This document shows, in pieces, positions 10,414 through 18,387 of a DNA stretch of 25,846 nt. The DNA comes from a virus (taxonomy: Duplodnaviria > Caudoviricetes). Position numbers and translations under genes: made by a program. The notes under the pieces are model-generated. The model had not been told where the DNA came from and did no database searches. It saw nothing but the letters and a program-made list of their open reading frames with translations. The stretch spans positions 1-25,846 of the IMG/VR virus record IMGVR_UViG_3300047407_000073. One strand, given 5' to 3'. The first letter of the stretch is position 1. Each line of letters starts with the position of its first letter.

Positions 10414-10465
10414 AAAATAAAAATGAAGAGAGAGGAGCAGGTGTCCAATCTCTCCTCTCTCTTCA
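10414..10465 (-). terminator. Intrinsic terminator with 14-bp perfect stem and 14-nt loop
   Basis: TGAAGAGAGAGGAG (10424-10437) and CTCCTCTCTCTTCA (10452-10465), followed by TTTTATTTT on the minus strand. Confidence 0.85.
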
Positions 10466-10473
10466 CACTGCTA

Positions 10474-10728
10474 TTAAGCAGTTAACTCAACGAACTCGCC
10501 GTTGCGTAGCGCACGAATACCTGCTGCTACGATTGCACGTGTTGGATGACCCATACGATATGTAGTCAATCCACCAGTTTTATTTGCATAAATGCAATAA
10601 CCCTGTGTGCGAAGAGCGCTAACAGTTGCTGTTGCGTTCTTAATACCAAATCGTGAACCGATTTGACCGGCCGTAAAATTCTGGCCATTTTGGAATGCCT
10701 TTAAAAGGCGTGCTTGTTTGCTTTTCAT
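10474..10728 (-). CDS. Small basic winged helix-turn-helix protein
   Basis: 84 aa: LLKAFQNG..FTAGQIGSRFGIKNATATVSALRTQGYCI followed by a beta-wing (TTYRMG); GGAG RBS. Confidence 0.75.
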   Translation of the reverse strand: MKSKQARLLKAFQNGQNFTAGQIGSRFGIKNATATVSALRTQGYCIYANKTGGLTTYRMGHPTRAIVAAGIRALRNGEFVELTA

Positions 10729-10739
10729 TATAAAGCTCC

Positions 10740-10807
10740 ATTACGTAATCACACTCAATACCACACCAAAATGCCCGAAGGGAGTGTGCGAATCCTTCGG
10801 GCGGTGT
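10740..10807 (-). ncRNA. Structured leader (predicted pseudoknot) upstream of the wHTH gene
   Basis: Stem GCCCGAAGG/CCTTCGGGC with basal ACACC/GGTGT; loop CACACTC is complementary to downstream GAGTGTG. Confidence 0.6.
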
Positions 10808-10810
10808 TCT

Positions 10811-11968
10811 TTAGAACGGAGTTACATCATTATCCATTTGTTGGATCGTAACTTCCGGTTCATCATTAACTTTAGGTTGTACAGCTTTACTATCAACTTT
10901 AGTGTATAGATCAAGGAACGCTACTCGTGTATCCTCATCAAAGCGAGAGATACACAACTCAATTGCTTTTGCTCTATCAGCAAAGATACCATATGTACGA
11001 GCAATGTGTACTAGACGACGAGTAGAGATTAGATCATCTACGCCGCCATCCTTGTAGGTCTGTCTAATGATATCTGACCATGTAACCAGATTATCAGCAA
11101 ACTCACCATCTAGTTTGCCATAAGCTTCCATTGCGTTAAGGATAATCTTCTTCTCAACTGCAGAAGATGGATATGGTTGATCCATAGTAGCAACGAAACG
11201 TTCAAGGAATGCTTCATCAAGGATTCGTGCACCTGTAAAACGACCGTCTTCAGATCCACGTCCTTTGGTATTTGCTGTAGCAAGGATATTAAAACCAGTC
11301 TCGGGATGAACCAATGCACCAGTCTTCTTAATATACAATGGCTTGCCTTCTAATACAGCTTGCAAACACATAAGCTTATTAGAACCACGATCAATCTCAT
11401 CAATCAAGCAGATTGCACCTTGCTTCATAGCTTGTGGAATAGGACCATCACACCAAACAGTTTCACCATTAACTAAACGGAAACCACCAATAAGGTCGTC
11501 TTCATCTGTTTCTTCTGTGATATTAACACGTACATACTTGCGCTTAAGCGTTGCACATGCTTGTTCTACCATCATAGTCTTGCCATTACCTGAAAGGCCT
11601 GCGATAAAAACAGGATAGAATGCCATAGATTCAATGATCTGTTTTATATCGCGGAAAAATCCCCATGAAACATAAGATTTGTCTTTTTCTGGAACTTCAA
11701 TTTTCACTTGATCAAATACCGTTTGTGAAACCTTCGTACTTTCAACTTCTGATTGTGAAGTACGAGGTTTAAGTTGTACAACTGGAGCAAGCATCGAGAT
11801 TTGATATTTACCTCGACCTACTCGATTCTCTGCTTTTGTAATGAAGTTAGGATAACCTAAACCCATATCATTAGCGTGGTCTACAAGTTCTTTTACATCG
11901 AACACTGAACGACCAGGATATTTATCACCAAGAGTTTTGATGAATGCTGACTTAATTTCTTGTTTCAT
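10811..11968 (-). CDS. MoxR/CobS/CbbQ-like AAA+ ATPase
   Basis: Walker A GLSGNGKT, DEDDLIGG, Walker B LIDEID, ATANTKG, LDEAFLERF, ISTRRL. Confidence 0.92.
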   Translation of the reverse strand: MKQEIKSAFIKTLGDKYPGRSVFDVKELVDHANDMGLGYPNFITKAENRVGRGKYQISMLAPVVQLKPRTSQSEVESTKVSQTVFDQVKIEVPEKDKSYVSWGFFRDIKQIIESMAFYPVFIAGLSGNGKTMMVEQACATLKRKYVRVNITEETDEDDLIGGFRLVNGETVWCDGPIPQAMKQGAICLIDEIDRGSNKLMCLQAVLEGKPLYIKKTGALVHPETGFNILATANTKGRGSEDGRFTGARILDEAFLERFVATMDQPYPSSAVEKKIILNAMEAYGKLDGEFADNLVTWSDIIRQTYKDGGVDDLISTRRLVHIARTYGIFADRAKAIELCISRFDEDTRVAFLDLYTKVDSKAVQPKVNDEPEVTIQQMDNDVTPF

Positions 11969-12020
11969 GGTTGGACACCTTTCAAAAGTTACATAACAAA
12001 AATTGCATCGTTATATGTAT

Positions 12021-12049
12021 ATTATACCACATTTTTTACATGTTGTACA
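12021..12049 (-). promoter_or_regulatory. Early-type promoter for the AAA ATPase
   Basis: TGTACA-17 bp-TATAAT with GTGG extension; shares CTATGTACAACATGT with the 14376 promoter. Confidence 0.88.
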
Positions 12050-12072
12050 TAGCCTATTTTATCAGACCAGGC

Positions 12073-14349
12073 TTATGCGATGGCATCAACAAACGCGTTC
12101 AGCAAGATACGGTTAACACGTTTTGCCTTAGTCATCTTTGCAAAGGCTGTTTTAATCTTGCCTTTGCTTGCACCATCCTCTACCATCTCGCCAAATTCAT
12201 CCTCTACGATGTCCATATACTTTGTACATAGACCAAAGTAGCGATCATATCCAAAGATGTTATCTTCAACCAAGCAACGATTCTTGTTTAGTTGAGTAGT
12301 GTACTTCTCGCGATATGAGTACATATGACCTGAAGGAGCTTCACTAACAGCCTTCGCTACTGCTTGATTACGATATTCGCTAATAAAGAAACCAAGTACA
12401 CTTGAACCAGTAGATTGTTTCAATGAACGCAGTAGCTGCTTTGTCATGTCTGAACCAGATACAGAGTCAACATTAAAGCTCTTGCCTTCCATGCGAATGA
12501 TTGCTTTCTTGCCTCTCCAACTATAGTATGATTCAGCAGTTAAACGATTATCATTACCAAGATCTGTCATGCGAATTTGGAATGAATCTGAATCACCATC
12601 TGTCAAGAACATTGCAGTCATTTTCTCAACGTTGTGTTTTAGTTTATATTTCTCAATCAGCTCATGAGCATACACAATACATGTATTCAATGGCGTACTA
12701 TGCAAATGGTTCCATTCTGTGATATACGTATTATTGAACTTATTGTCCCAACATTGGGAAAGGTTCCACTGCATACGAAATGCTTCATTATATTCTCTAC
12801 GAGACATACGCGAAGATATTAAAGTCAACAGATTAAACTTTTGAGCAATTACTTCACAATCACTGTATGACATAAAGTTTTGATCAGTGTCATCGTTACT
12901 CTCGCGTACTCTAGTAGTGAACGCATAGACTTCAAATGGTACATTAATCACTCTACAAAATTCAGCCAAATTTAACATTTGACGAATAGTTGCACCCATA
13001 TTTTCTGACATCGATCCAGAGAAGTCAATGAATAGCATCATGCCATGATTTTTATAGTTAGCTAACTTCGTTGACTTTAAGAAGATGTCTTCACTATACT
13101 TGTATGCATGCAACTTATTTGTATTGATAACACCAGTCTTTTGAATAGAAGAACGAGAGTATTGATATGCAGCTTTACGAAGCTCAAATTCCTTAGCCAT
13201 ATATGCAGCTGCAGTCTCTGTGTCATGCTTAAACTTTTTAAATTCTGGCTCTAGCTTTGTATTGCTTTCTGCAATCAGTTCTTTATGCCAATCAGTTGCA
13301 TCACTCAGCTTTGTTTTCCAATAGTTGTAATATTCTTTGTAGTCAATCACAACATCAGGTTGACGAACTTTATTGATTGTATAGATTGCAGTGTTCTTGA
13401 GACCAGTTTCAACTAATTCTTTTTCCTTATCACGGAAAATCTTGTCAGTCATGGCTTCTTCAAGAGCAGAGTCAGATATATCACTAGACTTTTTTTCATC
13501 TGGTGTATCTTTCACATCATCTTTTGCAAGTTCTTTCTTAACTGTATCGTCTCTGCCACCAATTCCAGTTTTACCATCATCTTGTTTAGGCTCAGAAGCT
13601 TCTTCAGGTTTCTCTGAAGCTTCTTGTTGAGGTTGTTGTTTTTCTTCCTGCTCTGATTCTTCTTGAGGATCAGGCTTTTCATAATCATTGCTATCGTCTT
13701 CCATAGACTCTAGCGGCAATGATGGCAAAGTTATCTGAGGAAACTTTGGTTTTTGATCGTCTAATAGTTTTTGATATGCATAGATTGCTTTAGCAAGTGC
13801 AATCACATCATCAAACGTTTCAGTCAAGAATGCTTTATCAAAAAATTCTTGTTCGATATTATCAAACTCAACTTCTATGTGTTGACCAAGCTTTGACTTA
13901 ATATTAATCTTATCAATTACTTTTGCGGTGTTGATATCAACTTGTGATGAAACTAGACCAAAGAAGTCTTCATCACTAAGTTGTTTGTATGCTTTTTGGA
14001 ATTGAAAACGTAGGCCAGGATAACGATCTTGAATTTTACGTTCAATACGTACATCTTCAAGGATGTTAAGATATGCTTTAGGTGCACCGCCAATATCATC
14101 TACAGCTTCATGCCAACCTTTAGCAGGAGTGTAAAGAGCATGACCAACTTCATGGCCTGTAAGCATATCATATACTGCTTTACCTTTATTTTTCCAAATA
14201 GGTAAAGCTAGTACACGTTTTTCTGGATCAAACCAAGCGGTTTTATATGCGCCGTGAATTACGGCAATATTTTCTCGTGCTAGTAGACGAGCTAGTGTGG
14301 ATTGTTGATCAAAGTTGATCGAAATTGCATCAAGTTGGACACCTTGCAT
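12073..14349 (-). CDS. CobT-like protein: N-terminal HExxH metallopeptidase-like domain, acidic linker, C-terminal vWA domain
   Basis: HEVGHALYT, NILEDVRIER, E/Q/P-rich linker, MIDAS motif DFSGSM..TPL..LTDGDS; adjacent to the MoxR-like ATPase. Confidence 0.88.
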   Translation of the reverse strand: MQGVQLDAISINFDQQSTLARLLARENIAVIHGAYKTAWFDPEKRVLALPIWKNKGKAVYDMLTGHEVGHALYTPAKGWHEAVDDIGGAPKAYLNILEDVRIERKIQDRYPGLRFQFQKAYKQLSDEDFFGLVSSQVDINTAKVIDKINIKSKLGQHIEVEFDNIEQEFFDKAFLTETFDDVIALAKAIYAYQKLLDDQKPKFPQITLPSLPLESMEDDSNDYEKPDPQEESEQEEKQQPQQEASEKPEEASEPKQDDGKTGIGGRDDTVKKELAKDDVKDTPDEKKSSDISDSALEEAMTDKIFRDKEKELVETGLKNTAIYTINKVRQPDVVIDYKEYYNYWKTKLSDATDWHKELIAESNTKLEPEFKKFKHDTETAAAYMAKEFELRKAAYQYSRSSIQKTGVINTNKLHAYKYSEDIFLKSTKLANYKNHGMMLFIDFSGSMSENMGATIRQMLNLAEFCRVINVPFEVYAFTTRVRESNDDTDQNFMSYSDCEVIAQKFNLLTLISSRMSRREYNEAFRMQWNLSQCWDNKFNNTYITEWNHLHSTPLNTCIVYAHELIEKYKLKHNVEKMTAMFLTDGDSDSFQIRMTDLGNDNRLTAESYYSWRGKKAIIRMEGKSFNVDSVSGSDMTKQLLRSLKQSTGSSVLGFFISEYRNQAVAKAVSEAPSGHMYSYREKYTTQLNKNRCLVEDNIFGYDRYFGLCTKYMDIVEDEFGEMVEDGASKGKIKTAFAKMTKAKRVNRILLNAFVDAIA

Positions 14350-14375: not shown

Positions 14376-14404
14376 ATTATACCACAAAAATAACATGTTG
14401 TACA
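14376..14404 (-). promoter_or_regulatory. Early-type promoter for the vWA gene
   Basis: TGTACA-17 bp-TATAAT with GTGG extension. Confidence 0.88.
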
Positions 14405-14914: not shown

Positions 14915-16628
14915 TTTTAATCCTTGAGAAGTTTCTCTCTTTTACAAATTCAATCTTGTTTCTAAATTTAGAATCAAGCACGTCACCCTTATGAGAGATA
15001 ACAAATACATTTGTATCTTGTACAGATCCTAAGATCTTCATAAGGTTATCAATTCCATCATTATCTAGCGATGAGTCAAACGTCTCATCAAGGATAAGAA
15101 GGTTTGTATTAGCTGAATTCTTCATCTTAGCAATCTGACGCCATGTGAACAATAAGCTAAGGTCGATGCGTTGTTTCTCGCCTTCAGAGAAACTAGCATA
15201 AGTGAACTCATCTCTGTAACGAGACTTAATTGTTTCGTTAAAGGATTCATCTAAATTAAATAAGACGAAGAAGTCTAATATTTGCAGATATTGATTAACA
15301 AGTTTGTTAATCACAGGTAAGTATTGTTTGACAATCTTCGTCTTAATACCAGTATCTTTTAACATCTCGTTAGCAATGTTGTTATAATTCTGTTGATCTA
15401 TATAGTTCAACTTTAAATCTGCTAATGATTCTTTATTATTTTGTAAATCTGTTAACTCATTTATTGCAACACTAACGTCTCCATCAGTACCTTCAATCTT
15501 GAGAATTTCAGATTCTAAACTATCTATACTATTTTGAAGCGCAGTGATAGATGCATTATTTGCAACGATATCTAATTGTGCTTGTTGAAACTTTTCTATT
15601 TCCTCAAGTAACGAATTTTCTTTTTCTAAAACGACACTTAATTCTTCCTTGAGCTTCTCAACACCCTGATTAATTTCCCCGATCTTACTATCGCATCGAT
15701 GCACATGCTCTTGCCTTGTTTCGGCAGATATTTCTTGAGAACAGGTTGGGCAACTAGTAGATTCCACAAAGAAAGCTCTGTTGTCTTGTAGCGTCTTAAG
15801 GGAAGATTCAAATTTAATTCCAAATCCGGCCAATTTCTGTTTCTTATTCGCAACGACTTTGAGATCCTTTTGTCGTTGAATAAGCAACTCCAACTGTGTT
15901 GAAAGCTGAGCATTTTTGGCCTGAAGATTTTGTATGCTAGTCTGTGAGTTTGAGATGGTCGTCTGCTTATCACGAATCTGGTCTTTTGCCAATGATTCGA
16001 CGTCGGAAATATATTTGTTTTGTAATCTGATTTTTTCACTAATGATTTCAAGTTGTGTGTTGGCATCTGCAATTTGTTCCTTCAATCTTGCCATCTTCTC
16101 TTTAAGAAGTTGGTTCATTCGCGAGAACACTTGAATATCAAGCAATTCCTCAATGATCGTCCTACGTTGGCCAGTTGGAAGCTGCATGAAAGGAGTAAAA
16201 GAAGCAGATCCAATTACAACGACTTGATGAAACGATTTGTGGTTAAGCTTCAACACATTCTGTTCGAGGAATGCTTGATAGTCTCGCGTATTCGCTTGTT
16301 GATTTAACAGAGTTCCATTCTGATAAATCTCAAAAGTATTTGGTTTAATACCTCTAACAATTTTAAACTCTGTAGCACCAACTGAAAATTCTACCTCTAC
16401 TACTGCTGCTTTATTATTGATTGAATTCAATAATTGTGGTTTAAGAATATTTCTAAATGGTTTACCAAAAAGACCGAACGACAATGCATCCAATAACGTA
16501 GATTTTCCTGCACCATTTTGTCCAATGATTAGTGTGGAATCATTCTTGTTAAGTTCAATCTCTGTAAATTGATCACCTGTACTTAAGAAGTTTTTCCAAC
16601 GTACAGTCTTAAAAATAATAGCTGCCAT
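14898..16628 (-). CDS. 46: Recombination endonuclease subunit gp46 (Rad50/SbcC-like)
   Basis: GQNGAGKST, coiled coil with CPTC zinc hook, FSEGEK, LILDE. Confidence 0.96.
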   Translation of the reverse strand: MAAIIFKTVRWKNFLSTGDQFTEIELNKNDSTLIIGQNGAGKSTLLDALSFGLFGKPFRNILKPQLLNSINNKAAVVEVEFSVGATEFKIVRGIKPNTFEIYQNGTLLNQQANTRDYQAFLEQNVLKLNHKSFHQVVVIGSASFTPFMQLPTGQRRTIIEELLDIQVFSRMNQLLKEKMARLKEQIADANTQLEIISEKIRLQNKYISDVESLAKDQIRDKQTTISNSQTSIQNLQAKNAQLSTQLELLIQRQKDLKVVANKKQKLAGFGIKFESSLKTLQDNRAFFVESTSCPTCSQEISAETRQEHVHRCDSKIGEINQGVEKLKEELSVVLEKENSLLEEIEKFQQAQLDIVANNASITALQNSIDSLESEILKIEGTDGDVSVAINELTDLQNNKESLADLKLNYIDQQNYNNIANEMLKDTGIKTKIVKQYLPVINKLVNQYLQILDFFVLFNLDESFNETIKSRYRDEFTYASFSEGEKQRIDLSLLFTWRQIAKMKNSANTNLLILDETFDSSLDNDGIDNLMKILGSVQDTNVFVISHKGDVLDSKFRNKIEFVKERNFSRIKNATTI

Positions 16629-17689
16629 TATACCGTTTCTAAATTCTGTGCCTCTACATATAAGCCACGAAGTAATGTCTTTAATTTTTCTTTATCTGCT
16701 TCAGTCTCAACTGCATCTACATATGAGTCTAACAGGACTTGTGTGTCATCTAGTTGAATCTCTTCGTCTTCGACATTATCACCTAAAAATTCTGCAAATG
16801 ATTCTGCAATTTTAAGTTCATAAATTGGTTGTTGTTGAATTCTATCGATGAAGCGATCAAATGAAAAATAGTCTGTCTTCTTCTCTACCACAACTTTTAC
16901 AAACTGACGATCTAAATGAGTTACATCATACCCATTATAATCTGTTTTTTCATCGTTGTACACTACTTTTGTGTGAAGAGTATATGGATTACGAATAGGT
17001 GTAATCTCTCGAGTTTCTGTATCTAATACATGGAAAAATTTTGGATCATCGCAATCTCCCCACGTAAATTCCATTTGAGATCCAAGATAGTGAATATTAT
17101 CTTTGCTAGACTTCGTATGAAAGTGACCAGATAAAACTGTTTCAAATCTACTAAAGTCTCGTGTGTCCATTCCATGAGGATTTGGAATTCCCTTATACAT
17201 CTCAAAGCCAGAAAATTCAAAGTGTCCTGCAACAACATCTGCACTACATGTATTAATGAAGTCCATTGTCGATGAATAATTTTCTGGATTGATCCACGGT
17301 ACTAATGCAATATCTAGTTCGCCATACGTTACTACTGATGGTTCCATATAGATTTTTACACAATCCATATAATGTCCCATTAATTCTTTTAATGAGCACA
17401 GTTCATTTGTGTTTTTATAATATACATCATGATTACCTGGAATAATATGCATGCGAATACCATATTCACGCAACTTATCAAGAAAAATACGACGATTGTG
17501 TTCTAATGCTTTGAAGTTAACATACTTACGATGTTCATAATAATCACCTAGGTGAATAATGTAATTAATGTTATTTTCTAGTAAGTATGGAAAAAAGATG
17601 TCGTTATAAAATTTCTCTTGATACTCCATAAAAATGTCTGAGGAGTTACGAGCTCCACAGTGAGTATCATTGAGGATCGCACATTTCAT
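16628..17689 (-). CDS. 47: Recombination endonuclease subunit gp47 (Mre11/SbcD-like)
   Basis: DTH, HLGD, GNHD, SGHFH phosphoesterase motifs. Confidence 0.96.
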   Translation of the reverse strand: MKCAILNDTHCGARNSSDIFMEYQEKFYNDIFFPYLLENNINYIIHLGDYYEHRKYVNFKALEHNRRIFLDKLREYGIRMHIIPGNHDVYYKNTNELCSLKELMGHYMDCVKIYMEPSVVTYGELDIALVPWINPENYSSTMDFINTCSADVVAGHFEFSGFEMYKGIPNPHGMDTRDFSRFETVLSGHFHTKSSKDNIHYLGSQMEFTWGDCDDPKFFHVLDTETREITPIRNPYTLHTKVVYNDEKTDYNGYDVTHLDRQFVKVVVEKKTDYFSFDRFIDRIQQQPIYELKIAESFAEFLGDNVEDEEIQLDDTQVLLDSYVDAVETEADKEKLKTLLRGLYVEAQNLETV

Positions 17690-18281: not shown

Positions 18282-18310
18282 TCACTCCATTTAAATTTAG
18301 GACACATTAT

Positions 18311-18339
18311 ATTATACCACATTTTATAGTAAAAGTAAA
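18311..18339 (-). promoter_or_regulatory. Early-type promoter for gp55-47-46
   Basis: TTTACT-17 bp-TATAAT with GTGG extension. Confidence 0.85.
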
Positions 18340-18358
18340 ATTATTTTACGGGGGCCTA

Positions 18359-18387
18359 TGTACAACAGGATATTTTTATGATAAAAT
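18359..18387 (+). promoter_or_regulatory. Divergent plus-strand phage promoter with no downstream ORF
   Basis: TGTACA-17 bp-TAAAAT with TGn extension; GGGCCTATGTACAACA is identical to the vWA promoter -35 region. Confidence 0.7.

Follow-up and report, generated by a model that had tools for sequence, protein, structure and literature searches.

The locus lies on the minus strand of the window, which is the whole 25,846-nt stretch of DNA that we analyzed, from an uncultured T4-like phage, and all features described here are on this strand. It opens with a predicted sigma-70-type promoter (14376..14404; TGTACA, 17 nt, TG-TATAAT), a motif that also precedes vWA in relatives, followed by the gene (12073..14349) of a 758-aa vWA-type protein with a putative N-terminal metallopeptidase. 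This protein matched PHROG 459 ("peptidase", E 2e-198) and contains the motifs HEVGH and DFSGS; a Pfam search gave no match, including none to a vWA domain. Its metallopeptidase and vWA names come in part from these motifs, which we take to mark such domains. In part they follow an account of a MoxR AAA+/metallopeptidase-vWA pair in T4-like and jumbo phages, the accessible text of which proposes a role in virion assembly and does not mention RNA control (PMC7824862). The two genes studied here are probably this pair. A second predicted sigma-70-type promoter (12021..12049), near-identical to the first, precedes the gene (10811..11968) of a 385-aa MoxR/CobS-like AAA+ ATPase (Pfam AAA_5, E 2e-21; PHROG 249; ~50% identity to cyanophage CobS), which has the features of a MoxR-type AAA+ ATPase; cobS is described as a cyanophage core gene in the accessible part of PMC3037559. 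The third gene (10474..10728) encodes an 84-aa protein predicted to be a winged-helix (wHTH) protein. It matched HTH_39 below the cut-off, and its structure model (pLDDT 90.6) shows the wHTH helix-strand pattern. The best matches in a fold search with this model were ArsR-type wHTH proteins, none at E <= 0.001, and a sequence search against solved structures gave nothing below E 0.001.

The 12-mer AAGGTGTCCAAC has exactly two minus-strand copies in the window, at 11970-11981 and 14334-14345, and these are the very positions that the preliminary description had reported in the AAA and vWA initiation regions. The invariant core of the 12-mer is GGTGTCCA. At AAA (target box 2, 11972..11979), it covers the Shine-Dalgarno, with the ATG 3 nt on; at vWA (target box 1, 14336..14343), it falls on codons 3-5 in the window, whereas in other relatives it lies over the vWA Shine-Dalgarno. 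The main hairpin (10424..10465), a predicted intrinsic terminator, has a long, G+C-rich stem of 14 perfect pairs (predicted -24 kcal/mol in the window), a 14-nt loop (10451-10438), and then a T run. Ten nucleotides of the AAGGTGTCCAAC box are complementary without mismatch to bases 10448-10439 of the loop, in which the invariant loop core TGGACACC occupies 10447-10440, and the earlier claim of a perfect stem with a 10-nt reverse complement in its loop was thus reproduced at 10465-10424. The further claim that pairing at vWA extends on both sides with bulges held in part: an extension of 12 pairs with one bulge can be drawn within the loop, but the other side requires the opening of the stem top, and the bulged extension is not conserved, invariance being limited to the 8-nt core. 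The predicted stem and T run stand directly after a stop codon, as in 3'UTR-derived sRNAs that share an intrinsic terminator with an mRNA. A small hairpin (10468..10481), whose loop contains the stop codon of the wHTH gene, is predicted immediately ahead of the main stem on the 5' side. It is predicted at the same place in most folded close-clade and D-type loci, on stem sequences that differ.

Could these matches have arisen by chance? The window contains 185 repeated 12-mers, and a repeated 12-mer by itself is not rare. For a match of the loop 10-mer at the two starts together, base composition gives a chance of ~5e-9, an estimate that ignores the post hoc choice and the near-identical promoters before both leaders. 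The placing of the matches exceeds chance, and their conservation in relatives is stronger evidence than this estimate. Among distinct close-clade loci, window included, GGTGTCCA was kept at the AAA start in 29 of 29 and at the vWA start in 23 of 23, and its complement was kept in the hairpin loop in 25 of 25; the absence of conservation in relatives, which the preliminary description had named as grounds for abandoning the idea, was therefore not what we found. In 18/18 measured loci, the AAA box overlies the Shine-Dalgarno region and stops at the start codon or shortly ahead of it; it lies 2-5 nt before the ATG, at a distance of 21-53 nt from its promoter. The vWA box covers the Shine-Dalgarno region in 10/15 loci and early codons in the other five, the window among them. 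The main stem has changed in a compensating manner around the constant loop core: 13 of its 14 pairs were altered on both sides, with 80% of cells paired versus 63% when shuffled. The 8-nt core showed no covariation within the close clade. Flanking bases co-varied weakly with the vWA box (29 versus 22 expected, p 0.002, uncorrected for relatedness), and covariation of the flank was marginal at AAA (p 0.03-0.05).

The two genes also rank high when called start regions are scored for pairing with the loop. In the relative G011 (99% complete), AAA comes first and vWA second among 264 start regions, and no other site of the entire contig matches both targets as well as the G011 loop does. Elsewhere, cognate loops placed the two genes at 1,2/105, 1,2/42, 1,4/61 and 4,2/219 of the called start regions. 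Foreign loops mostly rank vWA and AAA far lower, and loop-by-target energies form blocks according to seed type; for the cross-group ranking, G011 and G001 were probed with the window's loop, and their own loops were run separately. Since a top target with z ~ -2 to -5 turns up for whatever loop is tried, we dropped best-target z-scores as a statistic and counted only the ranks of genes named beforehand. All 44 promoter-plus-box matches in IMG/VR lie at vWA or AAA starts; a looser promoter-box pattern hit ~8100 stretches and was set aside as too unspecific. The 8-mer is not enriched in the G011 genome (4 seen versus 3.4 expected). Its four copies are those of vWA, AAA and the loop plus one antisense inside a gene; on this G011 count, a wider close-clade regulon was rejected, and vWA and AAA are the only exact targets in that genome. 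In G001 and G002, an extra loop-strand copy proved to be Trp-Thr-Pro coding in a regA-like gene and was rejected as an element. As a candidate third target, gp55 has TGTGTCC after its promoter in the window, G001, G002, G003 and G011 and not in G005 (in one set, two of the five loci were read at the leader). Opening of the vWA site is predicted to cost 5.1 kcal/mol out of the 15.6 gained. Kissing-loop targets were rejected, as the box is outside any conserved structure (unpaired probability mostly 0.4-0.7).

Between the AAA stop and the wHTH Shine-Dalgarno, we found a predicted RNA pseudoknot (10750..10807) supported by covariation. Helix P1 is formed by 10807-10802/10768-10763 and P2 by 10802-10794/10781-10773, and the loop 10788-10782 pairs with 10756-10750. 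Outside the close clade, no pseudoknot was detected in 79 sources (1.16 Mb) with a search model that carries no pseudoknot pairs. A metatranscriptome contig is identical to 10438-10752, from the pseudoknot through the loop; it is a weak, single contig of depth 5 from one run, without strand or true ends. In run X1, no contig of at least 95% identity covered vWA or AAA, and contig gaps of this kind are no proof of absence and cannot rank genes. The covarying pseudoknot before wHTH and the contig spanning pseudoknot to loop are new in this analysis. The separate vWA and AAA promoters, the pseudoknot and the second, small 3' hairpin had all been missing from the preliminary description.

Beyond the close clade, the distribution of the element is patchy. 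In 29 of 83 distant loci, a hairpin downstream of AAA carries an unrelated loop that matches its own start regions, and the covariation of loop and boxes that was earlier proposed as a check is thus seen between groups, the basis being four seed types spread over three groups of the tree. The 83 loci were labeled by hand, since the automatic hairpin call missed known cases, and two of the 29 (L042, L273) are doubtful. The match of the C- and D-type loops is less specific, because their CU-rich sequence pairs with further purine-rich leaders as well. No such hairpin was present within 1.3-1.5 kb in the other 54 loci. Similarly, none of the six cultured phages Syn9, S-SM2, S-CREM1, S-CAM8, DSL-LC02 and HTVC008M has such a hairpin near cobS in the 9-14 kb searched in each (two AAA starts are approximate). 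In G007 (99% complete), the antisense hairpin is nowhere in the genome, though the vWA and AAA leaders have a common box.

Could the terminator loop regulate the two genes whose starts it matches? We consider it likely, judging from the sequences, that the hairpin loop exerts feedback repression on vWA and AAA translation, either in trans, as a stable 3' fragment, or in cis. In 18 loci, we saw no conserved internal promoter, early or late, that could drive a 3' fragment, and we therefore infer that transcripts begin at the two predicted promoters and run through to the hairpin. The loop would pair over 8-13 bp with the box at the vWA and AAA starts and block ribosome loading. A duplex that covers the Shine-Dalgarno or falls in the first seven codons would be expected to repress initiation, and the outcome would be negative feedback on both chaperone partners. 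In the trans form, a long-lived ~390-nt 3' fragment, capped at its 5' end by the pseudoknot and at its 3' end by the two hairpins, would accumulate and shut off vWA and AAA later in infection. In the cis form, each finished transcript would bend back on itself so that its 3' loop pairs with the first start site it carries, which would limit the rounds of translation. We lean slightly toward the trans form. Repression, timing and a role in stoichiometry are suggestions drawn from comparisons among relatives. A bolder reading, possible but doubtful, is that of a dual-function RNA, in which the pseudoknot cap blocks nucleases, the body codes for the winged-helix protein and the loop holds a private address; it would act as a trans timer shutting off the MoxR-vWA pair, and the rewriting of the address together with its targets in several lineages would have produced natural orthogonal RNA switches.

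Since complementarity alone does not tell which partner acts on which, the pairing might instead target the hairpin: a vWA or AAA leader free of ribosomes would bind the nascent loop, alter termination or 3'-end stability, and thereby tune read-through into the nucleotide-metabolism and sliding-clamp genes downstream. We think this unlikely. The stems are long and G+C rich, and a seed placed in the loop can pair while the stem stays closed; a separate promoter is predicted for the sliding-clamp gene; and the boxes remain on ribosome-binding regions. Somewhat more improbable, in our view, is that joining of the mRNA ends stabilizes the transcript or aids ribosome reloading, so that output is raised rather than lowered. 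Every predicted transcript does start with a box and end with a loop, and in the window the vWA box sits downstream of the start codon, where it does not cover the Shine-Dalgarno. On the other hand, the Shine-Dalgarno region is covered at every AAA locus and at most vWA loci, as counted above, and in the accessible text on the known bacterial 3'-5' case, icaR, the pairing represses (PMC3868564).

The preliminary description had also offered the 8-mer as an orientation-independent DNA site for the winged-helix protein, whose wHTH fold is predicted, whose gene lies within the same unit and whose homologues occur in G006, G007 and G009 too. This reading now appears very unlikely. The box tracks the start codon and not the promoter, its spacing to the -10 box ranging over 13-53 nt where a wHTH operator would be expected to hold a fixed position, while its spacing to the ATG is narrow. 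Furthermore, the box is not palindromic, the inverse copy is always within a hairpin loop, and distant groups use unrelated sequences. Three distant hairpins with self-matching loops, those that were checked, follow a DUF3310 gene and not a wHTH gene, which favors RNA pairing over a wHTH operator. Equally hard to credit is a by-product of a duplicated promoter-leader cassette, the loop match then being a coincidence passed down by descent or a nonspecific anti-Shine-Dalgarno: the vWA and AAA promoters are near-identical, G007 has shared leaders without the hairpin and the box includes the SD-like AGGTG, but close-clade conservation and the cross-group loop ranks already strain this idea, TCCA does not belong to an SD, the 8-mer stayed unchanged even where it moved into coding sequence while the other leader sequence and stems diverged, the other 19 of the 21 promoters of this class listed in G011 lack the exact box, and different groups match through different seeds.

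Feedback repression by the loop has partial parallels among known RNAs. S. aureus RNAIII and 3'UTR-derived sRNAs encode a small protein, pair through a 3' loop with ribosome-binding sites and target unlinked genes; the phage RNA would share the first two traits and differs in that its only exact targets in G011 are vWA and AAA, which lie upstream of it in one unit. The leader of T4 gene 32 has a pseudoknot shortly before the ribosome-binding site, as is predicted here in a T4-type phage, where an extra enclosing helix P1, another topology and another gene set the predicted RNA apart. Another comparison is the icaR mRNA of Staphylococcus aureus, in which, according to the accessible text, the Shine-Dalgarno region is bound by a motif close to the 3' end of that same molecule, 3'UTR-5'UTR pairing represses, and cis versus trans action is left open (PMC3868564); here, the likeness holds for predicted transcripts. 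The icaR pairing uses a generic UCCCCUG motif within a 40-nt region cut by RNase III (PMC3868564, accessible text), whereas the phage element has a private 8-13 nt seed in a terminator-like loop whose two targets belong to a single operon and lie as far as 3.9 kb away, and close-clade loop/target pairings are predicted at 11-14 pairs, short of a long RNase III-substrate duplex. Similarly, the accessible part of a review describes how loops of the c4 antisense RNA of P1 and P7 pair around a phage mRNA ribosome-binding site, with specificity that varies among related phages, and control an antirepressor in temperate phages (PMC12197685). Here, too, a loop-exposed sequence is complementary to a phage ribosome-binding region; unlike c4, it closes a MoxR-vWA operon of a T4-like phage on the 3' side and matches vWA and AAA. 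An Rfam scan of the window gave three weak matches, none of them C4 and none to a credible family. Cuckoo RNAs of Alphaproteobacteria, as described in the accessible text, share the conserved loop motif on variable stems, but comprise 2-4 hairpins each with CCUCCUCCC (PMC4615179); the element has one loop with a different seed, CU-rich only in the distant C and D types.

Our literature search, which covered few subscription papers and no supplements, found no description of this element. In T4-type phages, the regulation of translation is generally ascribed to proteins, RegA among them. The RNA regulators of phages that the accessible part of the review covers are mostly those of temperate phages and act mostly on lysogeny genes or host mRNAs (PMC12197685). 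The natural seed swaps are ready-made compensatory tests, and the element offers a clean system for the cis versus trans question in bacterial 3'-5' pairing that was left open for icaR. If the proposed circuit is true, the poorly understood cobS/vWA pair would be under tight dosage control, and the terminator loop would add RNA pairing to the timing of genes in the abundant T4-type phages.

Along its minus strand, the window, a section of a T4-like phage genome, encodes gp55, gp47, gp46, a peptide deformylase, a peptidase-vWA protein (758 aa; 12073..14349), a MoxR/CobS-like AAA ATPase (385 aa; 10811..11968), an 84-aa protein (10474..10728), a dATP/dGTP diphosphohydrolase and gp45, the gp names being those that we presume from recognition of the translations. 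The preliminary description had reported one 12-mer (the box) at the translation starts of both vWA and AAA and its complement in the loop of a terminator-like hairpin. A search of the window found the 12-mer exactly at both sites (14334-14345 and 11970-11981) and nowhere else on the minus strand, and the hairpin (10465-10424) indeed has 14 perfect pairs, a T run and a 14-nt loop, 10 bases of which match the complement of the box exactly. Because the window holds 185 repeated 12-mers, the shared 12-mer is unremarkable by itself. vWA and AAA also have one predicted promoter each, the two near-identical, which that description lacked. A second 10-mer, GATGCAATTT, is common to the AAA leader (11999-12008) and early vWA (codons 7-10) on the minus strand; in the relatives compared, it was not common to these two places.

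Is the arrangement conserved? Searching for loci with the AAA protein and the small protein as queries yielded 88 viral and 80 metagenome loci, and the close set comprised 29 distinct loci (AAA identity >70%, the window included), several of them near-identical strains. The core GGTGTCCA was present upstream of the AAA start in 29/29 close loci and at the vWA start in all 23 that extend that far, and TGGACACC lay within the hairpin in all 25 reaching it. In 17 chosen sequences, eight loop bases are invariant while both sides of the stem change at 13 of the 14 pairs, and 80% of stem cells are paired (63% when shuffled, 51–63% in slid controls). As to covariation between loop and boxes, which the preliminary description had proposed to look for among relatives, the bases flanking the vWA core co-vary weakly with the loop (29 Watson–Crick pairs vs. 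22 expected, p 0.002, uncorrected for relatedness) and those flanking the AAA core marginally (p 0.03–0.05). Of 15 loci, 10 have the vWA box in the Shine–Dalgarno (SD) region and five have it at codons 2-7. With both genes pooled, the box lies 13 to 53 nt from the −10 box.

The promoter-plus-box pattern occurs in 44 stretches of IMG/VR, all 44 being vWA or AAA starts. A genome-wide count, likewise proposed earlier and run here for the 8-mer in G011 (a relative of 167.6 kb, 99% complete), gave four copies compared with 3.4 expected, situated at vWA, at AAA, in the loop and, antisense, within a gene. When start regions called with a simple purpose-made gene caller were ranked by loop pairing, AAA and vWA came first and second of 264 in G011, and they were the top two of 35 in the window and of 105 and 80 in the relatives G001 and G002. 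Only pre-named ranks were counted, because the best target of any loop scores z ~ −2 to −5. In a sliding scan over the whole of G011, no site paired better with the two leaders together than the loop.

In the leader of gp55, the late sigma factor, TGTGTCC directly follows the promoter (18300-18315, minus strand), maybe as a weak third loop target; it is present in the window, G001, G002, G003 and G011 and absent in G005. A plus-strand copy of the promoter motif (18352-18367) points away from gp55, is found at the same place in G002 and G011, followed by a conserved C/G-rich stretch, and possibly serves a small non-coding RNA gene. G011 also has a 308-aa gene of the same promoter class (C1 ~10692, plus strand), metallophosphoesterase-like by eye, whose leader has one mismatch to the box, a predicted pairing of −13 kcal/mol and rank 12 of 264, and a cluster of 24 tRNA genes plus a permuted tmRNA (L373:62-5300 and 16353-16742), with one CTA anticodon and one Ile with TAT.

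Among 83 distinct distant loci (AAA identity ~50–58%, ≥450 nt of downstream sequence), a hairpin with a long stem and large loop stands 3′ of AAA in 29, labels being assigned by hand and two of the 29 doubtful. Their loops are unrelated to that of the window, yet they match their own leaders: in locus L021, the loop pairs over 14 nt with vWA and 10 with AAA, the C and D seed types have GAGGAG-like and GAGAGUGAGAG-like boxes, and loop-by-target energies form blocks according to seed type. With the cognate loop, vWA and AAA rank 1 and 2 of 42 (G009), 1 and 4 of 61 (G010) and 4 and 2 of 219 (G006); in G008, AAA ranks first of 116, and the vWA start is absent from the called set. With foreign loops, both mostly drop to much lower ranks, and the small G009 set shows some cross-talk. 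A FastTree phylogeny of 100 AAA rows places the hairpin in three groups apart from one another, so that its distribution reflects either repeated gain or frequent loss or relocation. It was not found in G007, nor in the regions retrieved from six cultured phages. Several G007 genes, including vWA and AAA, share a promoter-leader cassette ending AAAGTGAGGAC (L302-L310), much like the promoter cassettes that T4-type phages are reported to have, and no antisense hairpin was found with them. Pelagibacter phage HTVC008M keeps vWA, cobS and a wHTH homologue in this order with a ribosomal protein S21 gene interposed (L089:6685-7225), a locus where the loop element was not found.

A pseudoknot (10750-10807, minus strand) is predicted in the 82 nt that separate the AAA stop from the small gene, ending 6–11 nt upstream of the latter's SD. 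In an alignment made without fitting it to the structure, 90% of its cells are paired, compared with 77% when shuffled; 13 of its 19 pairs vary at both positions, and the helix forming the pseudoknot proper is 97% paired. Its covariance model matched in the close clade only, and Rfam gave no match; its role might be to block nucleases, to serve the wHTH protein as a translational operator or to bind a ligand. Most loci of the close clade and of the D type also have a second, small hairpin predicted directly 5′ of the main stem, and no conserved promoter was found between AAA and the main hairpin. The small protein, a predicted winged helix, has 259 cluster-level relatives, and in G006 and G007 it occurs outside the vWA-AAA operon. 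One aquatic metatranscriptome contains the window's virus as a small share of its words. Among its contigs of at least 99% identity, one of 315 nt is identical to 10438-10752, from the pseudoknot 3′ strand to the loop end, and others are pieces of regA and of head genes. The 315-nt contig fits a stable 3′ fragment, but it is a single contig of one run that carries neither strand nor true ends, and the library may contain DNA.

The RNA element, judged by these comparisons, is real and conserved and probably functional, and the evidence points to RNA–RNA pairing at translation starts. The 10-mer hybrid is predicted at −15.6 kcal/mol, whereas opening would cost 1.8 for the loop and 2.9 or 5.1 for the targets. 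Control of termination by this pairing is improbable, and slightly more so is an end-joining that stabilizes or activates a transcript with box and loop at its two ends. That the box is a wHTH operator, an alternative raised in the preliminary description, is very unlikely. Just as implausible is a by-product of leader duplication.

As base pairing across the SD or the first codons generally keeps the 30S subunit from loading, we consider it quite likely that both partners, vWA and AAA, are repressed by feedback. A pseudoknot-capped 3′ fragment would pair in trans with both start regions, which is slightly more likely than action in cis. Cis action is supported because a transcript from either promoter would start with the box and finish with the loop, and because the hairpin keeps its position 3′ of AAA regardless of the intervening gene (DUF3310 in three distant loci checked). 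The icaR 3′-5′ pairing (PMC3868564) and c4 RNA (PMC12197685) resemble the proposed working, the element here belonging to neither family, and identity with the cuckoo RNA (PMC4615179) was rejected. A literature search for this element found nothing relevant. PMC7824862 describes the vWA-AAA target pair and proposes a role for it in virion assembly. The CU-rich C and D loops fit other leaders too and may for this reason control further genes, whereas the window's loop type looks dedicated to its two targets.
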